This document shows, in pieces, positions 26,010 to 53,261 of a stretch of DNA of 64,000 nucleotides (positions within the stretch are counted from its first letter, which is position 1; every line of letters begins with the position of its first letter). The DNA comes from Eledone cirrhosa (lineage: Eukaryota). A program made the position numbers and the translations under genes. The stretch covers positions 24,490,001 through 24,554,000 of the forward strand of contig OZ024756.1 of assembly GCA_964016885.1 (NCBI GenBank), given 5' to 3'. The notes under the pieces are model-generated. The model was not told the DNA's origin and did not search any database. It saw only the letters and a list, made by a program, of their open reading frames with translations.

Positions 26010-26183
26010 CTTTTCAATAATTCTCCGAATTCCTTCGGTAGGAGCATCCTTATAGTGTTCAGGATCAACAGAGAGAAGCTTGAGAACCGAGATGGAACCA
26101 TTCGGTGTGCGAGCAAAGACATCGGTAAATGTACCACCACGGTCAATAGCAAATTGAAACTTACCGGAGCCTTTAGTTTGCAT
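26010..26183 (-). CDS. OPLAH: 5-oxoprolinase coding exon 1
   Basis: ATG at 26183; [27 protein letters not shown]...[13 protein letters not shown]; donor GTATGT, phase 0. Confidence 0.95.
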
Positions 26184-28400: not shown

Positions 28401-28791
28401 TAATCCATTACTTTGTCAAACCCGCGAAGACTAGACTTTTTTAGAGGCTGCCTTTACTCGCCCCGTCATAGCTACGTCTCTGGGTTGTGATGGGAGCTAT
28501 AGGTGTCACCCATTGCGCCATCTCCTCTAGTATTTTACCGCTGTCGGTCCGGAGTCACTTATTCGTTCGGCAGTTGCCCGCTTATATCACAACTAACCAT
28601 CATATTTGGTGGCCGTATCGCTATACACCACCTGCAACCCGTTCTGCCGGGACCAAAGGGAGATAACCTGCAAACATTTAAAAAAAAAAAGAGTTGCCTT
28701 CAGAAAACAAATTTATTTATGTACAGATATTATGTAATTTGAGTATTATTGTAGAACACCCCATTCGATTTCAGACGGAAAACATTTTTTT

Positions 28792-29382
28792 ATCCACCAA
28801 CCTAACTTCCAAGATGCTGGTAATCAATTTTTTCCCCCGGAGACGGATGTGGTGGGGTGCACTCGCACTCGCCCTCTACGATTTTTTCTTCGCGTTTTAT
28901 CAACGAATAAGGCCCCCAAACCAGTCGGAATCGACTAGATTTGTAGAAAAAAGGGGTGTGAAAGGGGGCGAAAAGACCATCGGAGCTTCGTAGATCGACA
29001 CACTTCTTATGTTTGGTTGGAAATAATTATCTTTCCTCGTTTTTTACAGGACCTCTTAGATGCTTGCAATAGACTCACAGATTAAGGTTAGGATTTCCGT
29101 TTCCAGGAAAAAAAAAAAGTCGATTGCAAGCATCTAAGAGATCCAGAAAAAAACAAGGAAAGATAATTATTTCACTCCAAATGCGAGATGTGTGTATATC
29201 TGTGAAACTCCGATGATCTTTTCGCGCTTCCTTTTCTATAAGTCTAGTCGTTTCCGATAACAAAAAACAAAACAAAAAAAAAACAAAAAATGGAGATAAA
29301 ACTCCGAGGGAACACTCCATCACCTTCGTTCTCCGGGAAAAAAAAGTTGATTGCCAACATCTTGGAGGTTAGATTAGTTGAT
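28792..29382. repeat. Long imperfect inverted repeat (foldback/MITE-like), arms about 270-285 bp, loop about 40 bp
   Basis: CTCTTAGATGCTTGCAATAGACT pairs with AGTCGATTGCAAGCATCTAAGAG; GAAATAATTATCTTTCCT with AGGAAAGATAATTATTTC; CTAACTTCCAAGATGCTGG with CCAACATCTTGGAGGTTAG. Confidence 0.85.
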
Positions 29383-31579: not shown

Positions 31580-33539
31580 ATGTCTGAATGCAACTATAGC
31601 GATATGTCGAAAGGACAAACTAGTAGTGGTGGTGGTGGTGGTGGTGGTGGTGCTAGTAGTAGTGGTGGTGGTAGTACTACTGGAACAGCAACACAGATTT
31701 GTTTCAGAATTGATTCAGGACGTGATTTTACTCTGGATTTTCAGCCTCACCAGACTCTTTGCGACATCCTTAGTCGAACTATCTACGACAGTAAGAACTT
31801 CTGTGTTACCCACAACGGTAAAGTTCTTTTATGGTATTTCCCACTTTCAGAACAAAACATAAAGCCTACCGCAGACAACAACTACATCGAATGTAAAATA
31901 CATGCTAAAACTACGAAACCTCGGAGAGTCTGCGACCGAACTGACCTCAGTAACTTCGAAAGCCTCTATGACAGCGATCCGGATGTTTTTCTAAATTCTT
32001 CAAACGGATGTTTAGACTGTAACACCACTTCCGAGATTTTTTGTGATGGCAACAACTACAGTTATGGCTGCTATTCCGATCACCAGATCAGCAACTGTCG
32101 GATCGATAGACAATCTCGATCGTTTACAGTTGGCGATGATAGAAAGAATGAGAAACGAATGAAAAAGCGGGAATACCAGAGAAGACGTTATGCCAATATG
32201 TCACTGGCAGATAAACAGATGCGACTGGAACAGATGAAAGCTTATGAACGGGCAAAACGTGCGAGAGAAACTTTAGCGGAGAGAGAAGCTCGCCTCATGA
32301 GGTTAAGAATCAATCAACACAGACGGATTGATATCGAATCTGAGCCTGATCGATTAAGGCGATTGCAGAGACTACAAAAGAACCAACGACATCGAATACT
32401 TACCGAAGACCCAGATGGTCGGCACAAAAGACTGATACGAATGAGAGAAAATGCCCGAATGCGCGTCGAAAGAAGAAAGGCAATTGCACAGATATTGGGA
32501 AGTTGTAAGAGAGGACGGAAAAAAACAACGACGGCCGAATTATTGATGAGGCAAGCCAGCGACAATTTATCTTTCATGAGATTGAACTCCAAAAACAATA
32601 ATAATATCTCGGGCCGTAATCAAGGATTTTCATCTACGGAGCAAGGACAGAAAAATCCGAATGAAAGACAAGATGATTTTAGTTATTTAAGCCAGAATGA
32701 TAAAAATGTGTGCAATACCCAGGACGGTAACAGACAAGGTGGAGCGTTGTATTTGGATTCAAGTCATAAAAATTCCAACGGAGAATTTGCTTATATGAAA
32801 GAGAATAATGGTCAATGCCAGAATAGGATTAAGACTGGGATGGAACGTGGATCGGCTGGTGGGGCTGTTTTACCGTGTATGGAGTCAAATATGAACAAGG
32901 GCGGCCTCAACAAAGAGGGTCTGACAGATAAAACAGATGCCGCTGGCATATTTTCTCACCTGCATTCTAACCAAAACAAGGATATTGCTGCTAAAGAAAT
33001 GGGCTTTGACTGTCTGACATCACCACAAAATTCTATCAACGAAGAGAATGGCAAAACGGTAGCGAACGAAAGAGATGCTGGATTTTCTTATATTAGTGCA
33101 GCCCAAGGTTTGGGTCTTTCCGACAGAGACGGGGCCTTTCCTTATCTCAAGCCTAACTATAAGCCAACCCAGGTTGACTGTGTACGTACTGAGATAATGA
33201 CACCTCGAAGTGAAGATCTACTGAACTTGGATGCTATTCAAAGTTCACTTGATCAGTCGGGCAAAGGAACGGCTAAGGGTGGTCACAACGACCCCGGAAA
33301 CAACAGCAACAACAACCTGACATTACTGGACATTGGTGGTCAACAAAAAACTGGCAATTCCTCTTGTTCGTTTGCTTCGTCGAAGGTAGTGAAACGGAAG
33401 AAGAAAAAATCGACATTTAATCAGGGTGAAGTAGGGGGTGATTTTGGTGCGCTTGGACAATTGGACGAATTAGGGGCACTCGACAAGAAAAACATTGATT
33501 GCATGTTAGGGTCTCCATTTTCACCGATCATTTCTCAAG
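31580..33539 (+). CDS. Uncharacterised STPR-repeat protein, coding exon 1 (ubiquitin-like domain + 4 STPR repeats + NLS-like patch)
   Basis: 653-codon open frame with non-repetitive coding-like composition. ATG at 31580; donor CAAG|GTAAGT, phase 1. Four exact 23-aa repeats at 32198-32473. Read-through of the donor would stop at 33553. Confidence 0.88.
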
Positions 33540-33752
33540 GTAAGTCTAAATAATAATAAAATTAATGCAATTATATATATATATATATATATACATATAG
33601 TCCAACCCATGCGAGCTTGGGAAAACGGATGTAAAAACGACAATGATAAATGTATATATATTTTGATAATAATATATTGTTTAATAAACACCATACACAA
33701 CACATTTCCTTATTGTTTACATTGAGTATGTAATAAACACGGATGCCTATAC

Positions 33753-33791
<39 letters not shown>

Positions 33792-34093
33792 CAAAACCAT
33801 ATATATATATATGGATGTATATATATACATACACACCCCCATCTATGTATGCATGTGTGTGAGGTATACATATATCAGACATTTTGAATATGTGATTATA
33901 AATATATAAATATATATATATGTCTGTGTTCGTGTGTATTGTTTAGTAAACACCATACATAACACATTTCCTTATTGTTTACATGCATGCCCAAATATAT
34001 ATAGATGTGTATGTGTAGTATATATATATATATATATATATATCGGACATTTTGAAAATGTATAACAAGTAATTTAATATGTGTGTGTATATA

Positions 34094-34163
<70 letters not shown>

Positions 34164-34640
34164 TCATAGATTGAGTTAGAAACTCAAAAGAGTCTTTTAC
34201 AATTAAATAGCTCAAGGAAGGGAATCTTTCCGAGCCGTGTAATACAAATGAATATATGAGAGAGATGAACATCTATACAAGTATACATGATTTATTATTT
34301 TAAATCGAGACAGGCAAACCATATTGTTTTAAATGAGTATTTTTTCAACCTAGCTAACTTGGTCATTTACAATTCGAACACATGTATACTTGTATAGGTG
34401 TTCATTCCTCTCATATATACACATATAGATAGTTAAGCATTTCTATTTGAAAGTTTCATTCTTCTGATGAATGTGATTCTACTGAAATTTTTTTTCGTAA
34501 TCACACCCTGCTAGATTTAACATGGAATTGTCAGTTATTTATCTACCATGGTACTGTCACACTATAAACAACATATTGAAACGTGTATATATGTGTGTAT
34601 ATATTTATATATATTGTGTCTGTGTATGTATGTGTATATG

Positions 34641-34679
<39 letters not shown>

Positions 34680-34979
34680 ATGTAGTGGTAAGAAAGAGCT
34701 GGACAGAAAGGTCTTCAGAGACGAAAGCCCCTCCCCCTCAAGCACATGTTTTGACCCTTAACTTCACACACATATACGAAACTATGCATGTATATATACA
34801 TACATATATTCATGTATATATATGAAGTCTGCGTAAGTTGTGATCTGTTCGACCTATGAACAGATGTAGTGGGATCCCAGGCGAGTTAACAGTGACGAGA
34901 TATTGTGTATGTGTCAGATTTACAAGGGTTAATAGTAAGAACACCAGTGAAATAAACTCTTTCCATTCTTGTGAAGGCT

Positions 34980-35690
34980 TTGTAGTAGTTGATAGCTTCT
35001 GTTACCCAGGTGATCCAATTAGCAATGGAAGAAGTTGCTCTGAATGTATTGTAGCCAGAATAAGAATAATATGGAAATAAGTTAAGGGAACTACTATCTC
35101 TGCTGGCAACAAAGGAATTTTGTCATTCCAAGCAAAAGGTAGATTGTATGATGCTTCATATGAAGTGCAGTGTTGCCTGACAATGAGATATGGACAACGA
35201 ATGCAGAAGATATGCAAAAGTTAAAATAAATGAGACTGGCATGTTCTGTTTTATGTGTAATGTTAATGTCCATGAAAGATGATGCAAGGATGATGATTGT
35301 TGGATGAAGGAATGCCAGGACTTCTGTCTATGCAGAACATAAATAAACATCACCATGTTGAATGTGAAGAGAAACGAAGGCTGGCTGTATGATGCCTGTG
35401 TGTGGTATGTGATTTACAATTAACATGGTATTGAGACAAGGCCATTGAATGCAGTGTGTATGCAAATGCTGGAAAGAAATGAAGTGAGCATGCTTCAACG
35501 GATGTGTAATGTTAATATGTGAGAATGATGAAGCATAGATGAACTAAAAGAAAAACTGTGTATAAGAGGAATCAGAATGCAGTGTGAAAGAGAGAAGACT
35601 GCTGGTATGGATGTTGATAGCTAGGTGAAGAAGTGACAAGGAAGATCTGGACAGCGGTAGTGGAGACTGATCTCAAATCCTCAGTGCTTT
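34980..35690 (+). mobile_element. Degenerate RTE-type LINE 3' region
   Basis: VVDSFCYPGDPISNGRSCSECIVARIRIIWK; homologous to 17560-18132, with a partial internal duplication. Confidence 0.7.
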
Positions 35691-36285
35691 GTAAAAAATC
35701 CAAGAGATCAGCTATGTATACACAATGTTTGTTGACATTTAAAAGCTGTGATTCAGCTATCTAATTTAAGACGGTAAGAGTTGTCACAGTCCCTTGGCTG
35801 GATGGTTTAAAGCACCTATCCTGTATCTGCGAGATATAGGGTTCAATTCCTCATAACAGCCAGTGGCAACTTTTTCCATCTTGAAGGGTCTTCACCCTAT
35901 TTTATAGTATCGCCATGCATGAGCACATCATTTTTTTATGTATATAGTTGAACTAATGCCAAAACATCCATTGAGGAGAAAAGAAACTAGACAAACTGAT
36001 ATTAGTAAGCTTCGCTCATATCTTCTCCCTGACTGCAGTTTCTGGAATTAGGAAACAATATTAATTATTCCAATAAATTAAGACAACCAGTATTGGAAGA
36101 AATTCTTTGATTGGAAGGATTCTTTGGGTATAGATAAAAATGTTCAATAGTGTATGAACCTTGTCATTATCAAACAATGTGGTGCATTGAATAACTCATG
36201 GATCATTTAACTACCAGATGAATTTGTGAATATCAGGATAATATTACAGGATCAGTGTGTATGTGTGTATAAAGTAAAAAAGACC

Positions 36286-36615
36286 CCCTTCAGTCATGAA
36301 TGACCATAGGATTTGCACCTAGAAAGTTCCCCTCCGAGGCACAAGTCCAGGCAAGGTTGTTTTTTTGTGGAAGACCCAGCAGTTGCCCATGCATACCAGT
36401 CTCCCCTCTCCACGTCACCGATGTTGTCCTAGGAAAAGGCAATGGCTGATACAGCTTGGCATCAGTGATGTTGCAACTCATTTCTACAGCTTAGTGAACT
36501 GGAGCAATGTGAAATAAAGTGTCTTGCTCAAGAAGGCAATGCAAAGCCCGGTCCGAGAATCGAATGCACAACCTCACAATTGTAAGCCCGATACTCTAAC
36601 CACTAAGCCATGCAC
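36286..36615 (-). mobile_element. Second tRNA-derived SINE family copy
   Basis: Minus strand starts GCATGGCTTAGTGGTTAGAG...CATTCGATTC...CTTGAGCAAGACACTTTATTTCACATTGCTCCAG; same family as 50052 and 51395. Confidence 0.75.
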
Positions 36616-36778
36616 GTGTCTGCTTCCCTACTTACTAAAACTTTAGTCTGCTAAGTTTTCTTTGAGGCTTCTCTTTTCTAGGATTTTCTTCAATGCCAGG
36701 AATTTCTTTTCTAAACCTTGTACAGATTCAGTTATAAGAACTACTCAAATATCATTTCAAGCAGGTGGTGGGTGAGAG

Positions 36779-37500
36779 TGGCACAGGACCTAGATAGCAC
36801 ATGAAAACAGGGATGGTGGCACAGGACCTAGATAGCACATGAAAACAGGGATGGTGGCACAGGACCTAGATACCACATGAAAACAGGGATGGAGACACAG
36901 GACCTAGATAGCACATGAAAACAGGGATGGTGGCACAGGACCTAGATAGCACATGAAAACAGGGGTGGTGGCACAGGACCTAGATAGCACATGAAAACAG
37001 GGATGGTGGCACAGGACCTAGATAGCACATGAAAACAGGGGTGGGGACACAGGACCTAGATAGCACATGAAAACAGTTGGTGACACTGGCACAGATGACA
37101 TAGATAGCATGTGGAAACAAAGGGAGTGATACTATGTCACACAGGACCTAAGTAGCATGTGGAAACAAGGGGAGTGATACTATGTCACACAGGACCTAAG
37201 TAGCATGTGGAAACAAGGGATTGACACTATGGCACACAAGACATAGGTAGCGCATAGAAATAGGGGTGGGGTGCAACATGGTTTACAGGACCCAGATACC
37301 ACATAGAAACAGGGGGTGCAACACTGACATACAGGACCTTGATAGCACATAGAAACAGGTGTGTAATACTGTGGTACACAAGACCTAGATAGCATTTGGA
37401 AACAAGGGGGTGTTATACAATGGCACACAGGACCCAGGTAGCACAAGAAAACAGGGGGAGTGAAACTATGGCACACGGGACCCAGGTAGAACATTGAAAC
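36779..37500. repeat. 38-bp minisatellite grading into diverged ~43-45-bp units
   Basis: Unit GGCACAGGACCTAGATAGCACATGAAAACAGGGATGGT. Confidence 0.92.
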
Positions 37501-37503
37501 AAG

Positions 37504-37731
37504 TTAACCCTTTATCATTTAAACCAGCCATATCCGGCTAGAATTCTCTCACCTCTTCCTGTTCAAACCGGCCATAACTGGCCACTCATACTGATGTTAA
37601 GATTGTGTTCTCAAAATAAATAATATCAAAATCTTTTTATTCGATATTATGTGAGATAATTATGTGAAATAAAGCCTTTACCATGAAAATATAATAGTAA
37701 ATATCGAGTAATGCAAATGCTAAAGGGTTAA
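37504..37731. mobile_element. piggyBac-type MITE copy (opposite orientation)
   Basis: TTAACCCTTTATCATTT ... AAATGCTAAAGGGTTAA. Confidence 0.8.
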
Positions 37732-37869
37732 TGGCATGTGGGAGATAGAGTTTTATTATTTTTTTAAAATATGCATCTTTAATTTCTCAGCTGTCACCCC
37801 AGAAGGGGATATATGATGTGTTCAGTTGTACACTGCTTAAAAAAGCAATGTTTGTTTAGCAACAGTTTA

Positions 37870-40380
37870 CCACCTGTGGGTCAAGATGGTGACAATATAT
37901 TACTTTGATCTCTCAGTTTACAGGTATTGTCTGTTATTAACACTGTGTCATCTCAAACTCCAAACACTGACCATCTGATGGTCAAGATGATAATATATAT
38001 ATATTACTTTGATATTAACATTGTGTCATCACAGACTCTAAACACTGACCATCTGATGGTCAAGGTGATGACAATATAATACTTTGATCTCTCAGTCTAC
38101 AGATATTGTCTGTCATTGACACTGTCATCACAGACTCTAAACACTGACCATCTGATGGTCAAGGTGATGACAATATAATACTTTGATCTCTCAGTCTACA
38201 GGTATTGTCTGTCATTGACACTGTCATCACAGACTCTAAACACTGACCATCTGATGGTCAAGGTGATGACAGTATAATACTTTAATCTCTCAGTCTACAG
38301 GTATTGTCTGTCATTGACACTGTCATCACAGACTCTAAACACTGACCATCTGATGGTCAAGGTGATGACAATATAATACTTTGATCTCTCAGTCTACAGA
38401 TATTGTCTGTCATTGACACTGTCATCACAGACTCTAAACACTGACCATCTGATGGTCAAGGTGATGACAATATAATACTTTGATCTCTCAGTCTACAGGT
38501 ATTGTCTGTCATTGACACTGTCATCACAGACTCTAAACACTGACCATCTGATGGTCAAGGTGATGACAGTATAATACTTTAATCTCTCAGTCTACAGGTA
38601 TTGTCTGTCATTGACACTGTCATCACAGACTCTAAACACTGACCATCTGATGGTCAAGGTGATGACAATATAATACTTTGATCTCTCAGTCTACAGGTAT
38701 TGTCTGTCATTGACACTGTCATCACATACTCTAAACACTGACCATCTGATGGTCAAGGTGACGACAATATAATACTTTGATCTCTCAGTCTACAGGTATT
38801 GTCTGTCATTGACACTGTCATCACAGACTCTAAACACTGACCATCTGATGGTCAAGGTGATGACAATATAATACTTTGATCTCTCAGTCTACAGGTATTG
38901 TCTGTCATTGACACTGTCATCACATACTCTAAACACTGACCATCTGATGGTCAAGGTGACGACAATATAATACTTTGATCTCTCAGTCTACAGGTATTGT
39001 CTGTCATTGACACTGTCATCACACTGACCATCTGATGGTCAAGGTGATGACAATATAATACTTTGATCTCTCAGTCTACAGGTATTGTCTGTCATTGATA
39101 CTGTCATCACATACTCTAAACACTGACCATCTGATGGTCAAGGTGATGACAATATAATACTTTGATCTCTCAGTCTACAGGTATTGTCTGTCATTGACAC
39201 TGTCATCACATACTCTAAACACTGACCATCTGATGGTCAAGGTGATGACAATACAATACTTTGATCTCTCAGTCTACAGGTATTGTCTGTCATTGACACT
39301 GTCATCACAGACTCTAAACACTGACCATCTGATGGTCAAGGTGATGACAATATAATACTTTGATCTCTCGGTCTACAGGTATTGTCTGTCATTGACACTG
39401 TCATCACATACTCTAAACACTGACCATCTGATGGTCAAGGTGATGACAGTATAATACTTTGATCTCTCAGTCTACAGGTATTGTCTGTCATTGACACTGT
39501 CATCACAGACTCTAAACACTGACCATCTGATAGTCAAGGTGATGACAATATAATACTTTGATCTCTCAGTCTACAGGTATTGTCTGTCATTGACACTGTC
39601 ATCACAGACTCTAAACACTGACCATCTGATGGTCAAGGTGATGACAATATAATACTTTGATCTCTCAGTCTACAGGTATTGTCTGTCATTGACACTGTCA
39701 TCACAGACTCTAAACACTGACCATCTGATAGTCAAGGTGATGACAATATAATACTTTGATCTCTCAGTCTACAGGTATTGTCTGTCATTGACACTGTCAT
39801 CACAGACTCTAAACACTGACCATCTGATGGTCAAGGTGATGACAATATAATACTTTGATCTCTCGGTCTACAGGTATTGGCTGTCATTGACACTGTCATC
39901 ACAGACTCTAAACACTGACCATCTGATGGTCAAGGTGATGACAATATAATACTTTGATCTCTCGGTCTACAGGTATTGTCTGTCATTGACACTGTCATCA
40001 CAGACTCTAAACACTGACCATCTGATGGTCAAGGTGATGACAATACAATACTTTGATCTCTCAGTCTACAGGTATTGTCTGTCATTGACACTGTCATCAC
40101 ATACTCTAAACACTGACCATCTGATGGTCAAGGTGATGACAATATAATACTTTGATCTCTCGGTCTACAGGTATTGGCTGTCATTGACACTGTCATCACA
40201 GACTCTAAACACTGACCATCTGATGGTCAAGGTGATGACAATATAATACTTTGATCTCTCAGTCTACAGGTATTGTCTGTCATTGACACTATCATCACAT
40301 ACTCTAAACACTGACCATCTGATGGTCAAGGTGATGACAATATAATACTTTGATCTCTCGGTCTACAGGTATTGGCTGTC
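37870..40380. repeat. 99-bp satellite, about 25 copies
   Basis: Unit ACACTGACCATCTGATGGTCAAGGTGATGACAATATAATACTTTGATCTCTCAGTCTACAGGTATTGTCTGTCATTGACACTGTCATCACAGACTCTAA. Confidence 0.97.
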
Positions 40381-40424
40381 TCAAAATATGCCATGTCTAA
40401 CACAGAAAGGGCATCCATAAAAAT

Positions 40425-40636
40425 GTTGATAGCGGTGATGTTGATGATGATGATAGTGATGGTGATGGTGACATTGGTGGTGTTAATGGTGGTAATGATG
40501 GTTGTGATGTTGATAGTGATAGTGGTGATGATAGTGATGGCAATGGTGATGATAAGGATACTGATAATGATGGTGATGTTGATAATGATAATGATGGTGG
40601 TGATGATAGTGATGAGGATAATGGTGATGATAATTG
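40425..40636. repeat. Degenerate (GAT/GGT)n trinucleotide tract
   Basis: Direct inspection. Confidence 0.9.
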
Positions 40637-41142
40637 TAAAAGAATGCTATTCCAACCCATGTTAATCAGTGGGAGGGAGTTTGCAGTAGATTAAATATTG
40701 GGAAGACCCCCTCCTCTCAAACCCCCCCCCCCATGTCTCTGTTATATCTATCTGAAACCCTTAAAAAGAGGAGGACACTAGATTGAAATCCATACTGGGA
40801 GAGTGGGATGGATGTGTATGTGGGGGATAAGGGTGGGTGAATAGAATCCTTCTAGAATTTTCCATCAACTTCACACTGTGACTCACTGGGATATCTCTCC
40901 CCCTCTACTGCTGTTCTGTTGCTTATTTTGATAAATCACCTTTGCCCATTGAAGCTCTCCTCCCCAACACCACCACCACCACCACCACTATCTCACACAA
41001 TTTACATTCACATATATGCATCTATCTACATACACACATCTATTTACACACACATTCATATATACACATCTTACCATATCTCCATAGCATTTCTCTCTAT
41101 CTCTCCCATTCTTCTCAGCTGTCTGTCTCCCCCCTCTCTCTC

Positions 41143-41144
41143 TA

Positions 41145-41212
<68 letters not shown>

Positions 41213-41228
41213 ATATATATATATATAT

Positions 41229-41268
<40 letters not shown>

Positions 41269-41866
41269 ATATATATATATATATATTATAATATATATAT
41301 ATATATATATATTATAATATATATATATATATATATATTATAATATATATATATATATATATATATTATAATATATATATATATATATTATAATATATAT
41401 ATATTATAATATATATATATATATATATATATTATAATATATATATATATATATATATTATAATATATATATATATATATATATATTATAATATATATTA
41501 TAATATATATTATATATATATTATAATATATATTATATATATATATATATATATTATAATATATATTATAATATATATTATATATATATTATAATATATA
41601 TTATATATATATTATAATATATATTATAATATATATATATAATATATATATAATATATATATAATATATATATATAAGCTTTGCCTTTCATCCTTATGGG
41701 GTCGATAAAATAAAGTACCAGTAATGCACTGGGATAATTGCTGGCCTTGTGCCAAAAGTAGAAACAATTATAATATATATTATATATATATTATAATATA
41801 TATTATATATATATTATAATATATATTATAATATATATTATAATATATATTATATATATATTATAT
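41143..41866. repeat. Compound (AT)n/TTATAA repeat interrupted by a SINE 3' fragment (41677-41770)
   Basis: (AT)n blocks punctuated by TTATAA. Confidence 0.93.
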
Positions 41867-42916
41867 GTGTATATTATTCAATTTAGGAAAGTTGATTGAT
41901 CAGATAATCCACTGATTTTGATTGTAAACAAATGTAAAGCACTCTATGGCTTGTATTCCTTAACGTTTTAGCATTTATATTACATTTTCATGGTAAAGGG
42001 TTTATCTCGCATAATATAGAATCTACGAGATTTTGATGATGATATTATTTATTTTGAGAACAATACCTTAATGTCAGTATGAGTGGCCAGTTATGGCCAG
42101 TTTGAACAGAAAGAGGTGAGAGAATTCTGGCCAGATACAGCCGATTTAAATGCTAAAGAGCTGAAGTACTATCAATAAGGTATTAACTGGAGTGTCAATA
42201 TTATAAAGAAGAGAGACAGTTTTAATTGAATATCTTCTGTTTATTATATAATCCTGATTATGTAATAAACAGAAGAGGTACATTTAAAACCATCTCTCTT
42301 CTTTATAATATATATATATATATATTTAAATAATTTGAAAGCCATACAATGCATTAGAAAGAAAATCAAGATTGCTAAAATAACAAAAGAATCTTATCTT
42401 AGCAAATATATAAGAAAATGACGGTTTTTTAAAAAAAAAGATGTCTTACACGGGTGAAAGTATAAGGAAAAGAAATTGAAAATGCAACTGGAGTCTTTTT
42501 AAGAATATTTATTTATTTACTTTACCGGTTTCTCAGTTCTTATGATTTTCATAAGTAAAATGGAGATGGAGGGTTTGTGTTTCTGTTGGGGTTTGTCTTA
42601 CCTTACTCTCTGTTTCTCTCTATCTATGATTCTTTGTATAATTTTAGCCATGCAGGACACTTTTTTCAAATATTTATATATATAATATTATATTATATTA
42701 TATGCAGGTAGACGACCAGTTAGGGTATTGTAATTGGTAGATCTCGAAGTATCCTGAGGTAAGCACTCAACATGCTGAAGCATCCCAGATTGCATCTGGT
42801 TGTTCAGGCAGAGTATCTGCAGTGCAGAATAAGTATGCAAGATTGGTTTTTACAATTTATTCAGAAATTTCCCAGTAAATTGTTGTAAAAACTCATCTTT
42901 CGGACTTATTCTTCAC

Positions 42917-42971
<55 letters not shown>

Positions 42972-43207
42972 CTGTTTCTTCCCTCTCTCTCTGTATTCAT
43001 CAGTGCTGTTCTTATCTAGAGAGGAACTGATAATATCATGGGTGGGGTGTATGGTGGTAGGGGGAGGGGCAACTGATCTGTTGCTAAGCAACAAAGATAT
43101 CAACTGCCATTACAGCCTGATAAGCCACCCCACCCCCTTTTTGCCCAGATCTTCTTTTTAACAAAAAAAAAGAAACTGTTGTCCCACAACAGTGATACTT
43201 TCCTAGC

Positions 43208-43838
43208 TTCACTACAACCACCACCACTACTACGATGCCACTACAACCACCACCACTACTACGATGCCACTACAACCACCACCACTACTACGATGCCACT
43301 ACAACCACCACCACTACTACGATGCCACTATAACCACCACTATTACTACTACTACTACTACTGCTGCTGCTGCTACTACTTCTACCACCACAACCGCTAC
43401 TACTACCACCGTCACTACAATTTTACATCTACTACACTACGATGCCACTACAACCACCACTACTACTACTACTACTACTACCACTGCTGCTACTACTTCT
43501 ACCACCACAACCGCTAAAACTACCACCACCATCACCACCACCACCACTACTACAATTTTACATCTACTACACTACAATGCCACTACAACCACCACCACAT
43601 CACAACTACCACTTTGACCACCACCACGACTACTACTACTACTACCACTGCTGCTACTACTTCTACCACCACAACCGCTAAAACTACCACCACCACCACC
43701 ACCACCACTACTACAATTTTACATCCACTACACTACGATGCCACTACAACCACCACCACATCACAACTACCACTTTGACCACCACCACGACTACTACTAC
43801 TACTACCACAACATTACATCCACTATACTACCATACCA

Positions 43839-43871
<33 letters not shown>

Positions 43872-43905
43872 ATTTAGCACCACCACACTATTTCAGCCAC
43901 CAACT
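43208..43905. repeat. (ACC)/(ACT) compound repeat with 30-bp and larger higher-order duplications
   Basis: CCACTACAACCACCACCACTACTACGATG-type units. Confidence 0.9.
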
Positions 43906-43915
43906 GATGAAGGCT

Positions 43916-46585
43916 GTGTGTGTGTTGTGTGTTAGGGATGTGTGTTGTGTGTTAGGGATGTGTGTTGTGTGTCAGGGATGTGTGTAGTGTGTCAGGGATG
44001 TGTGTTGTGTGTTAGGGATGTGTGTTGCGTGTTAGGGATGTGTGTTGTGTATTAGGGATGTGTGTTGTGTATTAGGGATGTGTGTTGTGTGTTAGGGATG
44101 TGTGTTGTGTGTTAGGGATGTGTGTTGTGTGTTAGGGATGTGTGTTGTGTGTTAGGGATGTGTGTTGTGTGTTAGGGATGTGTGTTGTGTATTAGGGATG
44201 TGTGTTGTGTGTTAGGGATGTGTGTTGTGTATTAGGGATGTGTGTTGTGTATTAGGGATGTGTGTTGTGTGTTAGGGATGTGTGTTGTGTGTTAGGGATG
44301 TGTGTTGTGTGTTAGGGTTGTGTGTTAGGGATGTGTGTTGTGTATTAGGGATGTGTGTTGTGTATTAGGGATGTGTGTTGTGTGTTAGGGTTGTGTGTTG
44401 TGTATTAGGGATGTGTGTTGTGTATTAGGGATGTGTGTTGTGTGTTAGGGATGTGTGTTGTGTATTAGGGATGTGTGTTGTGTGTTAGGGATGTGTGTTG
44501 TGTATTAGGGATGTGTGTTGTGTATTAGGGATGTGTGTTGTGTATTAGGGATGTGTGTTGTGTGTTAGGGATGTGTGTTGTGTATTAGGGATGTGTGTTG
44601 TGTGTTAGGGTTGTGTGTTGTGTATTAGGGATGTGTGTTGTGTATTAGGGATGTGTGTTGTGTGTTAGGGATGTGTGCTGTGTATTAGGGATGTGTGTTG
44701 TGTGTTAGGGATGTGTGTTGTGTGTTAGGGATGTGTGTTGTGTATTAGGGTTGTGTGTTGTGTGTTAGGGATGTGTGTTGTGTGTTAGGGTTGTGTGTTG
44801 TGTATTAGGGATGTGTGTTGTGTATTAGGGATGTGTGTTGTGTGTTAGGGATGTGTGCTGTGTATTAGGGTTGTGTGTTAGGGATGTGTGTTGTGTGTTA
44901 GGGATGTGTGTTGTGTATTAGGGTTGTGTGTTGTGTGTTAGGGATGTGTGTTGTGTGTTAGGGATGTGTGTTGTGTGTTAGGGATGTGTGTTGTGTATTA
45001 GGGATGTGTGTTGTGTGTTAGGGATGTGTGTTGTGTGTTAGGGATGTGTGTTGTGTATTAGGGATGTGTGTTGTGTGTTAGGCATGTGTGTTGTGTGTTA
45101 GGGATGTGTGTTGTGTGTTAGGGATGTGTGTTGTGTGTTAGGGATGTGTGTTGTGTGTTAGGGATGTGTGTTGTGTATTAGGGATGTGTGTTGTGTATTA
45201 GGGATGTGTGTTGTGTGTTAGGGATGTGTGTTGTGTATTAGGGATGTGTGTTGTGTGTTAGGGATGTGTGTTGTGTGTTAGGGATGTGTGTTGTGTATTA
45301 GGGATGTGTGTTGTGTGTTAGGGATGTGTGTTGTGTGTTAGGGATGTGTGTTGTGTGTTAGGGATGTGTGTTGTGTGTTAGGGATGTGTGTTGTGTGTTA
45401 GGGATGTGTGTTGTGTATTAGGGATGTGTGTTGTGTATTAGGGATGTGTGTTGTGTGTTAGGGATGTGTGTTGTGTGTTAGGGATGTGTGTTGTGTGTTA
45501 GGGATGTGTGTTGTGTGTTAGGGATGTGTGTTGTGTATTAGGGATGTGTGTTGTGTATTAGTGATGTGTGTTGTGTGTTAGGGATGTGTGTTGTGTATTA
45601 GGGATGTGTGTTGTGTGTTAGGGATGTGTGTTGTGTGTTAGGGATGTGTGTTGTGTGTTAGGGATGTGTGTTGTGTGTTAGGGATGTGTGTTGTGTATTA
45701 GGGATGTGTGTTGTGTATTAGGGATGTGTGTTGTGTGTTAGGGATGTGTGTTGTGTGTTAGGGATGTGTGTTGTGTATTAGGGATGTGTGTTGTGTGTTA
45801 GGGATGTGTGTTGTGTGTTAGGGATGTGTGTTGTGTATTAGGGATGTGTGTTGTGTGTTAGGGATGTGTGTTGTGTGTTAGGGATGTGTGTTGTGTGTTA
45901 GGGATGTGTGTTGTGTGTTAGGGATGTGTGTTGTGTGTTAGGGATGTGTGTTGTGTATTAGGGATGTGTGTTGTGTGTTAGGGATGTGTGTTGTGTATTA
46001 GGGATGTGTGTTGTGTGTTAGGGATGTGTGTTGTGTGTTAGGGATGTGTGTTGTGTGTCAGGGATGTGTATGTTGTGTGTCAGGGATGTGTGTAGTCTGT
46101 CAGTGATGTGTGTGTGATGTGTGTTGTGTGTCAGGGATGTGTGTTGTCTGTCAGTGATGTGTGTGTGATGTGTGTTGTGTGTCAGGGATGTGTGTTGTCT
46201 GTCAGGGATGTGTGTGTGTAGTGTGTCAGGGATGTGTGTGTGTAGTGTGTCAGGGATGTATGTGTGTTGTCTGTCAGTGATGTGTGTGTGATGTGTGTAG
46301 TGTGTCAGGGATGTATGTGTGTAGTCTGTCAGTGATGTGTGTGTGATGTGTGTTGTGTGTCAGGGATGTGTGTTGTCTGTCAGTGATGTGTGTTGTGTGT
46401 TAGGGATGTGTGTTGTGTGTGTGTGATGTGTGTAGTATGTCAGGGATGTGTGTAGTCTGTCAGGGATGTGTGTAGTGTGTCAGGGATGTGTGTTGTCTGT
46501 CAGTGATGTGTGTAGTGTGTCAGGGATGTGTGTGTGTAGTGTGTCAGGGATGTGTGTGTGTAGTGTGTCAGGGATGTGTGTGTCA
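43916..46585. repeat. 20-bp GT-rich satellite with TTAGGG in most units, about 130 unit-lengths
   Basis: Unit GGGATGTGTGTTGTGT(G/A)TTA; degenerates to TCAGGG variants after about 46060. Confidence 0.97.
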
Positions 46586-46639
46586 GTTTAATCCAGGGTT
46601 CTATATTGTTACTACTATTTATTATCATTATCTATATCA

Positions 46640-46815
46640 GTATCGGTCGAGAGTCAGACACCATGCTTTGAAGCATAGAGTTACGTCCCTTTATGATCTG
46701 AGTTCAAATCCCGCCGAGGTTAACTTTGCCTTTCAGCCTTACGGGGTCAATAAAATAAAGTACCAGTAATGTACTGGGTAATTGCTGGCCTTGTGCCTAA
46801 AAATAGAAACAATTA
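46640..46815 (+). mobile_element. tRNA-derived SINE
   Basis: Matches the 54703 copy and directly abuts the 84-bp array. Confidence 0.88.
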
Positions 46816-48288
46816 TCTATATACTAAGGTTGGTGGCTTGACAGAGCTGTTACATTCTGAGTTCAAATCCTACTGAGGTCAACTTTACCTTCCTTATTAT
46901 CTATATATTAAGGTTGGTGGCTTGACAGAGCTGTTACATTCTGAGTTCAAATCCTACTGAGGTCAACTTTACCTTCCTTATTATCTATATATTAAGGTTG
47001 GTGGCTTGACAGAGCTGTTACATTCTGAGTTCAAATCCTACTGAGGTCAACTTTACCTTCCTTATTATCTATATATTAAGGTTGGTGGCTTGACAGAGCT
47101 GTTACATTCTGAGTTCAAATCCTACTGAGGTCAACTTTACCTTCCTTATTATCTATATATTAAGGTTGGTGGCTTGACAGAGCTGTTACATTCTGAGTTC
47201 AAATCCTACTGAGGTCAACTTTACCTTCCTTATTATCTATATATTAAGGTTGGTGGGTTGACAGAGCTGTTACATTCTGAGTTCAAATCCTACTGAGGTC
47301 AACTTTACCTTCCTTATTATCTATATATTAAGGTTGGTGGCTTGACAGAGCTGTTACATTCTGAGTTCAAATCCTACTGAGGTCAACTTTACCTTCCTTA
47401 TTATCTATATATTAAGGTTGGTGGCTTGACAGAGCTGTTACATTCTGAGTTCAAATCCTACTGAGGTCAACTTTACCTTCCTTATTATCTATATATTAAG
47501 GTTGGTGGCTTGACAGAGCTGTTACATTCTGAGTTCAAATCCTACTGAGGTCAACTTTACCTTCCTTATTATCTATATATTAAGGTTGGTGGGTTGACAG
47601 AGCTGTTACATTCTGAGTTCAAATCCTACTGAGGTCAACTTTACCTTCCTTATTATCTATATATTAAGGTTGGTGGCTTGACAGAGCTGTTACATTCTGA
47701 GTTCAAATCCTACTGAGGTCAACTTTACCTTCCTTATTATCTATATATTAAGGTTGGTGGCTTGACAGAGCTGTTACATTCTGAGTTCAAATCCTACTGA
47801 GGTCAACTTTACCTTCCTTATTATCTATATATTAAGGTTGTTGGCTTGACAGAGCTGTTACATTCTGAGTTCAAATCCTACTGAGGTCAACTTTACCTTC
47901 CTTATTATCTATATATTAAGGTTGGTGGCTTGACAGAGCTGTTACATTCTGAGTTCAAATCCTACTGAGGTCAACTTTACCTTCCTTATTATCTATATAT
48001 TAAGGTTGGTGGCTTGACAGAGCTGTTACATTCTGAGTTCAAATCCTACTGAGGTCAACTTTACCTTCCTTATTATCTATATATTAAGGTTGGTGGCTTG
48101 ACAGAGCTGTTACATTCTGAGTTCAAATCCTACTGAGGTCAACTTTACCTTCCTTATTATCTATATATTAAGGTTGGTGGCTTGACAGAGCTGTTACATT
48201 CTGAGTTCAAATCCTACTGAGGTCAACTTTACCTTCCTTATTATCTATATATTAAGGTTGGTGGCTTGACAGAGCTGTTACATTCTGA
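46813..48288 (+). repeat. 84-bp satellite, about 17.5 copies, derived from a SINE head
   Basis: Unit TTATCTATATATTAAGGTTGGTGGCTTGACAGAGCTGTTACATTCTGAGTTCAAATCCTACTGAGGTCAACTTTACCTTCCTTA. Confidence 0.97.
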
Positions 48289-48703
48289 TTTCCATCACCC
48301 ACTGCCCCCTTCCACACTGTTTTTTGTCCTATGTTGTTGTTATTGCTACTCCCTCTCCTATTTCTAACTTGTTTTTCTTATGTATTTCACCTGCCTTTCT
48401 ATTGGTGTCTCTAACACCTTGCACTCTTGTGACCTTTGAAGGAATTTATTAGTACTATTATTTTGTTATTATTGTCGATAAAATAAAGTACCAGTAATGC
48501 ACTGGGATAATTCCTGGCCTTGTGCCAAAAGTAGAAACAATTATTATGTTTAAGCTCTTTACAAATTCCGCTGGAGTCAACTTCATCTTCCATCCTTCCA
48601 GGGTCGATAAAATAAAGTACCAGTTAAGTACTGGCTGGGCTTGATATAATCACCCCCCCCCCCCCTAAAATTGTTGGCCTCGTGCTTAAATCAAACCATT
48701 ATT

Positions 48704-48900
48704 TTGGCAGTTTCAGTAAAGCGTCAGACACCATGCTTTGCAGCATAGAGTTATGACCCTTTACGTTCTGAGTTCAAATCCCGTCGAGGTTAGCTTTGCC
48801 TTTCATCCTTACGGGGATGATAAAATAAAGTACCAGTAATGCACTGGGGGTAATTGCTGGCCTTGTGCCAAAAGTAGAAACAATTATTATTATTATTATT
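48704..48900 (+). mobile_element. tRNA-derived SINE with (ATT)n tail
   Basis: TTGGCAG head, GAGTTCAAATCC B box, core and GTAGAAACAATT(ATT)n end. Confidence 0.88.
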
Positions 48901-48953
48901 GTTAATGTAGCATATTTCCATTCTAATAGTTGTGTTCTGTTTGTTTTTTGTAG

Positions 48954-49871
48954 AATTCTATAACAACTCTACAACGGAGATGATGACTCCGAAAGACAGG
49001 AAGCTTCTGAAGATGAGGCTGAAGCAACGGAGACGTCTTCACACAGAGACAGAAGCACAACGCAACAAACGTCTACAGCGCATGAAACGTTACCAACACC
49101 AACGCATGGCTGCCGAGGACCCAGAACATCGCCAGAAAAGGCTGATACGCATGCGAGAGAACGCGAGGAGACGCGAAGAGAGGAAGAAAGCTATAGCGCA
49201 ACTGTTGGGAAACAGCCACAAGGGAAAGAAAAAGTCGCAAGCCATTGCATTCCTAATGCGGCGGATGAAAGACAACGAGAGTTTGCTGCAGTATCAGAAT
49301 ATGCTCAACCGTGACGGCAGTAATTTGTCAAAGGTGTCTTCAAAGAACACGGATAAAGATTTCGGCTACATGTGTCCTGACGACAAGACCTGTGGAAACT
49401 TAGATGAAGGCCCCTGTTTTTCCAGCGAATGTAGCAAGTCTTGCAGGCAAGGAAATTCCTGTTGTAACGGAGAATTTCCTTACCTGAAAGAAAACGGTCG
49501 GCAATGCCAGAGCAGAAGCCACTCCAAAGGAACTCCGAATGGCTCTTACTCTTGTATGGAGCCACCAATGGACAGTAATAAAGATATGACGGAGAGAGGG
49601 TCTACTGGAGAAGTTGTCTTCCCTTCTTTCAACCAGATCCAGAACAGGGTGAACACAGATGGTGATGGAGGTAGCAATAATTTTGGTTGTTATTCCTCGG
49701 ACCAGAACAAATCGATGTCTAGCAGTGTGTCTGACTGTTCTTACATGAACAGCTGCAGCATGGGCAATGATGGATGCTACTCTAACATGAAATGCTCTCA
49801 AGATGGTAAGAAGAGGAAGAAAGGATGCGATGACTGTCTCTCTTCGTCACCGCTATCTTCCATGAATGAAG
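48954..49871 (+). CDS. Uncharacterised STPR-repeat protein, coding exon 2 (symmetric phase 1-1, 918 nt)
   Basis: Acceptor ttgttttttgtag, donor GAAG|GTAAGT. Paralogous to exon 1 (EDPEHRQKRLIRMRENARRREERKKAIAQLLG; NGEFPYLKEN). Confidence 0.85.
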
Positions 49872-50051
49872 GTAAGTACCACTATGATGATGATGACGAT
49901 GATGGTAGTGATGGTGGTGATGGTGGTAGGGATGATTGTAGTTTGGGGGTGGTAGTGAGGATGATGATGGTGCTGGTAGCTTATTGCAATGCGTAGTTGA
50001 GTGTGTGTGATATTTATATATATATATATATAAATATATATATATACATGT

Positions 50052-50390
50052 GGAGGCACATGGCTTAGTGGTTAGAGCATTGGCCTTGCAATCGAAAGGT
50101 TGTGAGTTCAATTCTCAGACCGGGTGATGTGTTGTTTCCTTGAGCAAGACACTTTATTTCACATTGCTCCAGTTTACTCAGCTGTAGAAATGAGATGGAA
50201 GGAACTGGGGTCCCTATCATTCCACTGCAAAGTGGTCGTGGAGGTGCCACGGCAAAAAAAGCACCCAGCACTCACTGTAAATGAGGTTGGTGTTAGGAGG
50301 GCATCCAGCTGTAGAAATCAAGCCAGAATCAGTTCCCGTCCCACCCTTGCAAGCAGGGAAAAGTGGACGTAAAATGAAATGATGATGATG
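50052..50390 (+). mobile_element. Second tRNA-derived SINE family copy (possibly composite)
   Basis: TGGCTTAGTGG A box, GAGTTCAATTC B box, (GAT)n tail. Confidence 0.75.
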
Positions 50391-51226
50391 ATATATATAA
50401 TATAAGATCAAAAGATGGTTAAAAGAGTTCCAAATATTTTATTATGCGCATTTCAAAAACAAATATCATCATTTGATGATATCTGCGTTTTCATCAGATA
50501 ATTATATTTGCCTTGCTTTATTGTGCTACAATAAAACTCACCTCCTACATTATATATATATATATATCTTGCAAGCAGGGAAAAGCGGACGTAAAATGAT
50601 GATGATACGAGAGAGAGAGAGAGTGGGGTGAATGAGAGAGAAATTAACGCATCTAGCTACACACATCATCATCATCATTATCATCTTCGTTTAACGTCTA
50701 TTTTCCACGCCAGCATGGGTTAGATGGGAGTTGTCCCACTTGAGTCAAGGTTGGTCGGATGACCGTGTCTCGCTCATATAGGACTATCTGGCAGTCTTTC
50801 TACGGCTGGATGCCCTTCCTAACCCCAACCACATTTAAAGTGTGGAGCTGGGAACTTTTTACCGTGTTACCTACACGGCCACATTACAGCGTGGACTGTG
50901 TGTTTTTTCTCGTGACACCTACACAATCTCGATCTCATTATCTCATTTATTTGGACTGGATGTTGTGGTACCAACTTTATAGAGAGAGGGTGGTGTTGGT
51001 GGGAGTGGGAGGATAGGGTAGGGGTAGTGGATTGGGATGTATATTTGGTTAAGAGGTGCCTACTGACTAGGTTTCGCTTTCTACATAGGCAAGGCGGGTC
51101 TTCTGTATTACTGCGTAGCACCAAAGATCTCGGTCCAGTGACATTGTCTTAGAGAGGTGCAAGTGTGTATGGGGGAGTAGTTTTGAATGTATGATTGAAT
51201 TGAGCGAGAATGTAACACATGCATAG

Positions 51227-51269
<43 letters not shown>

Positions 51270-51667
51270 AGGACCGTCATATTTGTATGATACAAAGAGC
51301 CAGTGAGAGTGTAACTATACACACACATGTAGATATACACACACACACACACTATAAATACCATATAATATATGTTTATATATATATAGTGGTGAAGGCG
51401 TGTGGCTGAGTGGTTAGAGAATTGGATTCACAATCTTGAGGTTGTGAGTTCGAGTCCTGGACCGATCGATGCGTTATGTCCTTGAGCAAGACATTTTATT
51501 TCACGTTGCTCCTTCTACCTGGAGTTGCGACCGATAGATAGTACTAGCAACTGGAAAGACCGATGGAAACATTGTTTCCTCGGTCCGATTTGACGAAAGT
51601 CGATCGCAAAAAAAAAAAAAAAAAAAATATATATATAGTGCTTAAAACCTACTTTATCTCATTGCAG

Positions 51668-53196
51668 ATTGTTATGAATGCTGTGCTAACAATATGATGT
51701 GTGGCCCCGACTGTGACCAAGGATCGAAACTTAAAGGAACCCAATTCAACGATGGCAACTGCGTGAACCCTCGAGAGAAAAGACTCGAACAGATGAGGCA
51801 GTACCAGCGGAAACGGTTAGAGAATGAATCGACTGAGGAACGACAGAAACGGCTAGAACGCATGCGGATGAATTCCAAGGTGCGCGTGGAAAGAAAGCGC
51901 ATGATGGTACAGATGATGAAGACCGGCCAAAAACCTCGTGACAAGGGGTCAACTTTGACTGAGCAGGACTCTCTCCTGCGCTACCCGGACGTCTGTGAGC
52001 AAGATGGGAACGTGGATAACTTCTGTATTGAGCAGACCGGGTTGAAAGGCAAAGAAGACCGCTTGCAGACTGCAAAAGGAAACCCAAACGAGGAACAGTC
52101 TCCTGATTTTGCATACGTCGGCTCAAACCAAAAGGCAGTGGTGAACAGACAGTCGGACTACCTTTATTCCAAGTCGAACATGTCAACAGACAACCACGGC
52201 AAGACAATGTCAGATCGAGACAGTGGGTTTATGGGTCGCAACCAAGTAAACAATAAAATTGTGCCGGAGAGGGGGAGTGTCTTCCCATGTATGGATCAAA
52301 TAACTGGCAAGAACGAACTGGATCGAGCCAGTTTGGGTGGTCCGGTGTTTCCCGGAATGACGCTGATCTCAAACAAGGACACACACGACAAGGGCCCCGT
52401 CTTTCCTTGTATGGATCAGGAGCAAAACAAGAACCTCCCTGCTGACCGAGGAGTAACTGGTGCAGGGGGAGGTGCAGATGTAACCGCAACAGCAACTGGC
52501 GGCGGCGGCGGCGGTGGTGGAGGAGGAGGAGGAGCGACGGCTTCTGGGGCTGGTGGTGGAATGGCAGGAGGGCCGTTCTGTCTGAATCCCTATCAGGCTG
52601 AAGTGACATCGGCTGACAGAGCGTCTATGTTTCCTTACGGTGTTCAGTCCCAGAACAAAGACCCAAATGATAAAGCTGGCGGTGTGATCCATTCATTCTT
52701 CAACCAAAACCAAGGTCGGAACATGACCGACCGAGATATAAACTTCCCTTGCATAATCCCCGAACAGAATCGAATGTCAAACTTCTCGTACATGAACCCT
52801 TACCATGGTGGTGGCGTTGCTGGCGGCAACCTTGACCGGGATGGAAACTGCTCTTACCTGAAAACAGTGCCGGATGTTAGAAAAAAAACTGACCATGGTC
52901 ATCGGAAAAAAGAGGTGGAGTCTTCTAGTTCTGCATTTTCTTCTTCTGTCGTCAACTACGGGAAATCTGCTGATACTGGAATGCAAATGTATTCGAAGCA
53001 AAGTCTCGGCTATATGTGTATTTCGTGTGAAAGGCCATTGCCTAGAGATCAACTGAGTCGATTTTCACCATTTCCTGGTTCGCTGATCCCAGATCACGAT
53101 CCCAACAAACTCGCAGACCAACAGAAGCAGTGGATATGCAAGACCTGTGAGAAATTAAAAAGGAACTACCACTTATTTCCGAACCCCGTCAGCTAA
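51668..53196 (+). CDS. Uncharacterised STPR-repeat protein, terminal coding exon 3 (STPR repeats, Gly-rich tract, C-terminal C4 zinc finger)
   Basis: Acceptor ctttatctcattgcag, phase 1, in frame with the 500-aa ORF; TAA ends at 53196. Contains ESTEERQKRLERMRMNSKVRVER and CISC-x36-CKTC. Confidence 0.87.
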
Positions 53197-53261
53197 TTTT
53201 TCTGCTGTTTTGCAACTTCCATTGAAACAATCTTCCTTATAACACACACTATTCTACATTC

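Follow-up and report, generated by a model that had tools for sequence, protein, structure and literature searches.

A single-copy, three-exon octopus gene with three STPR arrays and a C-terminal C4 finger

Structure of the gene

The gene described here lies in a window of 64,000 nucleotides (the whole stretch of DNA analysed) from Eledone cirrhosa (GenBank assembly GCA_964016885.1, contig OZ024756.1, positions 24,490,001 to 24,554,000 of the forward strand), and positions given below are those of the window. It is a real, single-copy, conserved octopus gene of three coding exons, which gives one protein of 1468 amino acids (aa) with three arrays of the 23-aa STPR repeat and a C4 finger at its C-terminus. 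Three plus-strand frames (31571-33553, 48911-49996, and 51646-53196) are the open reading frames of this gene and, when joined at GT-AG sites, they give 4407 nucleotides, viz. 1468 aa and a stop, with both introns in phase 1. The features of the gene are as follows:

31580..33539, plus strand: coding exon 1 (aa 1-653), with an in-frame stop adjoining upstream and the same start Met in orthologues; from N- to C-terminus a Gly/Ser tract, the likely ubiquitin-like domain, an acidic/Cys stretch, STPR array 1, linker 1, and a basic patch
31694..31915, plus strand: likely integral ubiquitin-like domain (aa 39-112), 95.9% identical to Octopus sinensis, with weak ubiquitin matches
32129..32473, plus strand: STPR array 1 (aa 184-298), one degenerate and four 23-aa repeats; PF21107 26.3 bits, FMBP-1 match
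33537..33548, plus strand: donor 1, within CAA GGT AAG T (Gln-Gly-Lys)
33540..48953, plus strand: intron 1, 15.4 kb, minisatellite-rich
48954..49871, plus strand: coding exon 2 (aa 654-960), in phase 1 at both ends and therefore symmetric; it comprises STPR array 2, linker 2, and a basic patch
48977..49183, plus strand: STPR array 2 (aa 662-730), three repeats; PF21107 29.8 bits
49869..49880, plus strand: donor 2, within GAA GGT AAG T (Glu-Gly-Lys)
49872..51667, plus strand: intron 2, 1.8 kb, exactly skipped by contig 24 of run X4
51668..53196, plus strand: coding exon 3 (aa 960-1468); from N- to C-terminus STPR array 3, linker 3 with a Gly tract, a basic patch, the C4 finger, and the stop
51757..51894, plus strand: STPR array 3 (aa 990-1035), two repeats; PF21107 22.8 bits
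52960..52968, plus strand: GGG AAA TCT (Tyr-Gly-Lys-Ser context), a donor-homologous site without GT, 20 aa before the finger
53008..53172, plus strand: C4 finger, CxxC-36-CxxC-helix; finger and tail 98.4% identical to O. sinensis

The splice motifs are CAAG/GTAAGT after 33539, ttgtag/AA before 48954, GAAG/GTAAGT after 49871, and ttgcag/AT before 51668. The word AGGTAAGT occurs three times on the plus strand of the window, two of these occurrences being the donors of the gene, and the one alternative donor nearby that was tested breaks the reading frame. These four sites, their common phase, and the 4407-nucleotide frame without a stop had been put forward in an earlier reading of the sequence (the original prediction) and are confirmed here, the same joins being present in three Octopus proteins.

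Exon 2 is present in four public sequencing runs (X1-X4), none of which is recorded as RNA, and the contigs of these runs were compared with the genome over 48400-53260. Contig 24 of X4 (2159 nucleotides) passes from 49869 directly to 51666; because of the AG on either side, this is identical in sequence to the join 49871/51668. At 48952, where the acceptor AG equals the final two letters of exon 1, the same contig departs from the genome, and another 403 letters follow; contigs of X1-X3 continue into the introns. Junction 2 is seen directly in an assembled contig and junction 1 indirectly, so that of the two joins that the original prediction had named for checking, 49871 to 51668 is found exactly, whereas 33539 to 48954 is reached through the departure at 48952. 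The indirect nature of junction 1 and the unrecorded library kind of X4 weaken this evidence. Since no second copy of the gene was found in its own genome (G000; only the best candidates were scored), where queries with STPR array 1, the finger, the ubiquitin-like region, and the related protein P0008 were significant at their own locus only, a retrocopy is unlikely as the source of the spliced contig.

It is very improbable that the three frames represent separate tandem genes, or else an unspliced transposon relic. Each frame has an internal Met and no run is recorded as RNA, which favours this reading, but the exact skip of intron 2 in X4 and the identical joins of the three Octopus annotations speak against it, and unspliced read-through at donor 1 meets a stop after four codons while frame 2 decays past donor 2. 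This reading is also opposed by the strong conservation described below, by the single copy (one locus in G000, not the multi-copy state of a mobile element), and by Pfam scans of the three frames and P0001, which gave no DUF6570, Rep, or helicase.

Intron 1 contains long homogeneous minisatellites at 38024-40380 (period 99, 24 copies), 43919-46581 (period 20, 133 copies), and 46812-48292 (period 84, 18 copies).

Orthologues and sequence conservation

A homologue search among proteins of 1144-3265 aa gave one match among 8000 scored candidates, viz. LOC115221555 of O. sinensis, a protein of 1443 aa that is 80% identical to exon 1. In its cluster are proteins of O. bimaculoides and O. vulgaris, along with a single unnamed fragment of exon 1. 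The proteins of O. sinensis (LOC115221555, 1443 aa), O. vulgaris (CAI9737178.1, 1443 aa), and O. bimaculoides (LOC106870383, 1441 aa) can be aligned with the window protein over their full lengths, and both joins fall at the same places in each; they are direct orthologues of like length whose status is that of uncharacterised predictions. The gene is already predicted in RefSeq/UniProt in these three Octopus species as "uncharacterized / STPR domain-containing". Literature naming any of five identifiers that belong to LOC115221555 and LOC106870383 was not found in the library searched, and none of the STPR papers listed there gives a description of the present gene or architecture. The original prediction, which knew of no described protein combining a ubiquitin-like domain, three STPR clusters, and a C4 finger, thus holds within the searches run, except that the protein had already been database-predicted in Octopus; as to a full-length match to a characterised family, which it had also raised, the searches gave uncharacterised Octopus orthologues only.

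Overall identity to the O. sinensis orthologue is 81.7%, and it is unevenly distributed: 98.4% for the finger and tail, 95.9% for aa 39-112, 83.7-89.8% for the STPR arrays, and 70.8-85.4% for the linkers. By sequence identity, the ubiquitin-like region and the C-terminal finger are the two most conserved parts of the protein.

Domains of the encoded protein

The Pfam model STPRs (PF21107; gathering cut-off 27 bits) is detected in all three frames, exon 2 alone being above the cut-off (29.8 bits), and the whole O. sinensis orthologue scores 60.2 bits, also above it. All three arrays keep the 23-residue register, and the only match of array 1 among PDB sequences is FMBP-1 (5d23, E 8.6e-5), in agreement with the FMBP-1 type of repeat that had been proposed. 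Excerpts of the literature on FMBP-1 describe Glu1, Thr/Ser2, and Arg9 as conserved in its STPR, phosphate contacts by Arg6, Arg9, Leu10, Tyr16, and Arg20, and 4 bp of AT-rich DNA per helix (PMC4856987), and further excerpts state that its STPR and basic region jointly form a nuclear signal and that the STPR aids the nuclear location of ZNF821 (PMC4821344). Among the ten repeats of the octopus protein, Arg/Lys6 and Arg/Lys20 are kept in all ten, Leu10 in nine, Arg9 in eight, Glu1 in seven, Thr/Ser2 in five, and Tyr16 in four. By analogy we infer that the STPR arrays may bind AT-rich duplex DNA in the major groove. Weighing against such binding, Glu1, Thr/Ser2, and Arg9 are all kept in 4 of the 10 repeats, Tyr16 likewise in 4, the terminal repeats are degenerate, and arrays 2 and 3 hold just three and two repeats.

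The protein resembles FMBP-1 of Bombyx mori (5d23; PF21107) in its basic patches and in 23-aa repeats with Glu1, Thr/Ser2, Arg6, Arg9, Leu10, Met13, and Arg20. FMBP-1, however, has 218 aa and one four-repeat array (PMC4856987, in excerpt), whereas the octopus protein has 1468 aa and three arrays (of 4-5, 3, and 2 repeats). Compared with FMBP-1 and ZNF821, it has in addition long Phe-x-Tyr/Cys linkers, a likely ubiquitin-like domain, and a C4 finger. The vertebrate factor ZNF821 carries C2H2 fingers.

The linkers that follow the arrays are low-complexity stretches of 230-360 residues. Comparisons between them score 117, 106, and 75, the shuffle maxima being 71-83, 79-83, and 61-76, and among 500 global shuffles the real scores were reached by 0, 0, and 1, respectively; the paralogy of the exons therefore extends beyond the repeats and beyond composition. 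Exon 2 is 35% identical to exon 1 over 261 aa and 26% identical to exon 3 over 241 aa. About 180 N-terminal residues are found only in exon 1 and the finger only in exon 3. The common exon layout described in the original prediction consequently stands for the paralogous STPR and linker portions, but not for these unique ends, nor for the arrays, which have 4+1, 3, and 2 repeats.

The N-terminal domain is likely ubiquitin-like, judged from three weak tests. All three PDB matches of the region at E<=10 are ubiquitin-derived (E 0.31-0.89, not significant), in the Atlas it scores 0.91 to ubiquitin/Rad60-SLD clusters, with 143-155 shared features, and its visible sequence pattern is the third sign of likeness. 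There is no Pfam match, and the AlphaFold2 single-sequence model has a predicted local distance difference test (pLDDT) value of 35, too low for a fold search; the domain that had been called ubiquitin-like retains this likeness, but without a Pfam match or a usable model. It is also below significance in every test and was found in the Octopus cluster only, which counts against the assignment. Exon 1 residues 38-330 gave no match among the 1529 candidates scored from proteins of 359-1143 aa, an absence weakened by the length limits. Neither the window protein nor its orthologues have Gly-Gly after the region, and it is therefore at most an integral ubiquitin-like domain, not a conjugatable modifier.

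The C4 finger that had been recognised is confirmed and strongly constrained, and the frame ends about 15 residues past its last Cys. Its model (pLDDT 60, core 66-76) contains a hairpin, a strand, and a final helix, and the finger is predicted to be a treble clef. The fold matches are all weak and all to treble-clef domains, among them ZADs (five structures, Z 2.5-3.6) and CsfB (Z 3.7); Foldseek gave none at E<=0.001 and VIA-align none at Z>=5, and a Pfam scan gave no zf-AD at E<=10. The finger is like ZAD (zf-AD) and other treble-clef C4 domains (Grauzone, CG2712, CsfB, and the ClpX ZBD) in its order CxxC-long loop-CxxC-helix and its predicted topology (Z<=3.7), but it has no Pfam match, its Z values are far under a trustworthy level, and it is C-terminal, whereas ZADs stand N-terminal to C2H2 arrays. 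In the Atlas, the finger retrieved only clusters without a name, of prokaryotic or viral proteins (0.90-0.92). A two-copy finger complex with zinc had a predicted score of 0.00 with the alignment unused, and was uninformative.

Tandem units ending in a finger

The last 69 residues of the protein gave 7 matches among 1.84 billion representative proteins, viz. P0001, P0006 (71%), P0007, P0008 (46%), and the three repeat proteins P0009-P0011. The last three match the loop only, the two examined being repeat proteins without Cys pairs, and they were rejected as chance matches; repeated domains therefore inflate such scores, as they do for P0007, in which five stretches are summed. Proteins P0005-P0019 are presumably from other cephalopods. 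Three of them (P0005, P0006, and P0015) are relatives of the third unit, with the final 20 residues identical, and a tree of the modules places P0015 with unit 3 at a support of 99/98 and P0008 on the opposite side. P0008 begins like exon 2 rather than exon 3 (51% over aa 13-146), and P0008 and P0016-P0019 contain, in one frame, an exon-2-type STPR start, linker, basic patch, Ser-rich stretch, intact finger, and stop.

The position of the splice donors is informative in this regard. The sole Gly-Lys-[FSYCLW] tripeptide of P0008, P0016, and P0018 is a Gly-Lys-Phe located 18 aa before the finger. Donor 2 aligns with the Gln-Gly-Lys-Phe of P0008, donor 1 likewise with the pre-finger Gly-Lys, and in exon 3 the homologous site is the GGG AAA TCT listed above. 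The ends of exons 2, 1, and 3 score 59, 47, and 78 against the pre-finger stretch of P0008, values that none of 2000 shuffles reached in any of the three comparisons. The existence of a finger-ended module of the P0008 type, together with donors at the pre-finger Gly-Lys, makes it likely that a finger originally closed every unit, and the duplicated unit is likely better described, on these alignments, as STPR-linker-Gly-Lys-C4-finger than as an exon. Of the whole-exon triplication originally proposed, the equal phases and the paralogy of STPR and linker remain, but the unit appears to have run on into the finger, with the donors cutting units 1 and 2.

An alternative history, in line with the original prediction, would be plain exon shuffling, in which a symmetric phase-1 exon of STPR and linker was duplicated, only the last exon had a finger, and proteins of the P0008 type are paralogues or copies of that last exon. 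The symmetry of exon 2 (1-1) and its greater closeness to exon 1 than to exon 3 are in keeping with it, as is the failure to find a decayed finger behind donors 1 or 2 in the introns, or a further module or finger remnant anywhere in intron 1. We nevertheless regard this history as unlikely, since P0008 begins like exon 2 and yet ends in a finger, P0015 and P0008 fall on different sides of the module tree, and the donors are located at the pre-finger Gly-Lys. Several observations do weigh against finger-ended units. The placement of P0008 is infirm in the module tree (83/81) and open in a tree of the STPRs only; direct alignments of the exon ends are weak (exon 1 with exon 2 reached by 103 of 2000 shuffles, exon 2 with exon 3 by 39 of 2000); and the Gly-Lys is missing from P0005, P0006, and P0015, the relatives of the third unit. 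P0008 and P0015, whose taxon and locus are unrecorded, may be separate genes, and a conserved donor could have dictated the Gly-Lys instead of arising from it. A fourth module was not found in the 30 kb past the window.

On balance, and as the simplest reading, we consider it fairly probable that three tandem STPR-linker-C4-finger units were spliced together into one gene, which likely encodes a nuclear DNA-binding regulator. Each ancestral unit would have ended in a finger and a stop, and a GT donor within the pre-finger Gly-Lys codons would allow splicing to bypass the finger and to continue into the following unit at a phase-1 acceptor. Units 1 and 2 have presumably lost their fingers in octopods. 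In the protein, each STPR array might fold, by analogy with FMBP-1, as short helices along the AT-rich major groove at about 4 bp per repeat, so that the three linker-tethered arrays could each grip a site of their own, or else bridge DNA; the STPRs and basic patches may serve as nuclear signals, and the N-terminal ubiquitin-like domain and C-terminal treble-clef finger may recruit partners.

Work on STPR proteins has essentially been confined to FMBP-1 and ZNF821, and the present protein is a strongly conserved, apparently cephalopod-restricted member whose architecture was absent from the searches run. If its history is as proposed, one could still read from the locus how a donor within coding sequence turns tandem gene copies into a single protein of several modules.

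Possible origin of the finger in Helentron elements

The best non-cephalopod match of the finger among the 1.84 billion proteins is P0007, where the matching finger stands just before DUF6570; host proteins matching the finger outside the cephalopod set were not found among these representatives. P0007 is Helentron-like, with an internal duplication and five C4 fingers, the last of which directly precedes DUF6570 and then OTU. According to excerpts of PMC11417382, DUF6570 is a marker of HLE2 elements, and the 20 domains that Helitron-like elements carry stably include STPRs. Ten metagenome loci were confirmed among 228 candidates; eight of the ten have the finger, with DUF6570 next in four of the five scanned. 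At five loci (L059, L060, L062, L063, and L065), 23-residue Glu-Thr...Arg repeats lie in frame upstream of the finger, and L062 runs on, past one stop, into Helitron_like_N. A hidden Markov model (HMM) of the element fingers, with P0007 left out, scores the window finger at 18.1 bits, P0006 at 17.5, and P0008 at 15.2; for each of the three, no Cys-fixed shuffle out of 1000 reached the score, and one of 1000 stricter shuffles did. With the reverse HMM, element fingers reach 16-24 bits in 13 of 15 cases, the two exceptions being those from the octopus's own genome.

The gene and the N-terminus of the HLE2/Helentron RepHel protein, which is laid out as 23-aa array, C4 finger, DUF6570, OTU, and Rep, are alike in the order of array and finger and in the finger pattern Y/F-x-C-x-S-C-x-R-x-L ... 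K-Q-W/Y-I-C-x-T-C. The octopus gene differs in being single copy and spliced, in having no DUF6570, OTU, Rep, or helicase, in its linker of 330-370 residues between array and finger, and in the sequence of its repeats. The likeness to P0007 and to the element fingers suggests, with moderate strength, domestication, and the chances that the finger of the unit, perhaps with its repeats, came from the N-terminus of a Helentron-type transposase appear about evenly balanced. Against this origin it must be considered that the element loci were found via P0007, itself picked by likeness to the query, and represent one family; that the E-value of P0007 sums five stretches; that both own-genome Helentron fingers tested score as background; that the own-genome elements are only 25-31% like L059; and that Pfam STPRs recognised none of four 23-aa arrays of the element loci (L059-L065) at E<=10. 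Among viral contigs, none of 73 candidates was a relative of the finger-DUF6570 alignment.

An ordinary host origin, with the parts being those of an FMBP-1/ZNF821-like STPR factor with a ZAD-like treble-clef dimerisation finger and the likeness to Helentron fingers reflecting a shared ancient fold or capture by the transposon from a host, is a serious possibility that we would put a little below an even chance. The repeats of the protein are nearer to FMBP-1 (Arg6, Arg9, Leu10, and Met13) than to the L059-L065 arrays, the weak fold matches include ZAD structures and CsfB, the two own-genome Helentron fingers are at background, and HELIANO treats STPRs as domains captured by elements (PMC11417382, in excerpt). 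A host origin is, however, harder to reconcile with the lack of a zf-AD match, with the finding that a DUF6570/OTU protein matched the finger among the 1.84 billion while no non-cephalopod host protein did, and with the order 23-aa array, finger, and stop, which is that of a transposase cut just before DUF6570; long intron-free units would also fit a mobile-element origin.

We tentatively propose a fuller history, in which an AT-rich-binding transcription factor was domesticated from a Helentron N-terminus, tandem-triplicated, and welded at its donors, with other cephalopods switching finger-ended isoforms and octopods having fixed the long form; it is somewhat less likely to be correct than to be wrong in one of its parts. 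Domesticated regulators of the ZBED6 type are alike in the proposed route, a DNA-binding region of a transposase being kept as a host regulator, but derive, according to excerpted literature, from cut-and-paste elements. A Helentron origin, if true, would be a rare case of part of a rolling-circle transposase being kept as a host regulator, in animals whose genomes retain many STPR-bearing elements. The protein might then bind AT-rich sites that derive from Helitrons, or be a competitor of the proteins of active Helitrons. Literature joining Helentron, zinc finger, and domestication was not found in the library searched.

Other STPR loci and neighbouring genes

The genome G000 contains at least 233 PF21107 matches, with the best 150 of 2172 candidates scored. 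Most of the 30 loci examined look like copies of the Helitron N-terminus and three (L008, L016, and L027) look like other host STPR exons. Most of L011-L037 are STPR-led frames followed by CxxC...CC, which we take to be the Helitron N-terminal finger, and such elements have hundreds of copies in the genome. G000 also has 59 DUF6570 matches, several of them in near-identical frames of 2230 aa, and L043-L052 and further loci form an HLE2/Helentron family of near-identical copies with intact frames of 2230-2245 aa (DUF6570, Helitron_like_N), which suggests recent activity. L027 (G000:C4:286060895) and L016 (G000:C4:286076511) are similar non-Helitron STPR exons on the same strand about 15 kb apart and are possibly, on their sequence (the L016 frame scores 58 bits with PF21107), a second host gene of tandem STPR modules. 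The top PF21107 match in the genome (L008/L068, G000:C8:40278164-40278385, minus strand) is a 225-aa frame with about five canonical repeats and no finger, and may be an FMBP-1/ZNF821-like host gene.

Upstream of the gene, a 5-oxoprolinase (OPLAH-like) gene spans 3619-26183 on the minus strand, with its first coding exon in a head-to-head arrangement:

26040..26183, minus strand: first coding exon of the OPLAH-like gene, 5.4 kb away; Hydant_A_N E 8e-8

The observed/expected ratio of CpG is about 0.7-1.3 over 28000-32000, above that of 26000-28000, and this may be a promoter region shared with the OPLAH-like gene. Just upstream of the oxoprolinase start, a 228-aa frame on the minus strand (26719-27405) is presumably a fragment like the reverse transcriptase of a long interspersed nuclear element. 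About 24 kb past the end of the window, TPR and MYND-finger exons lie on the same strand as the gene (L073:4290-5982, G000:C17), and we assume these to belong to a probably SMYD-like gene.

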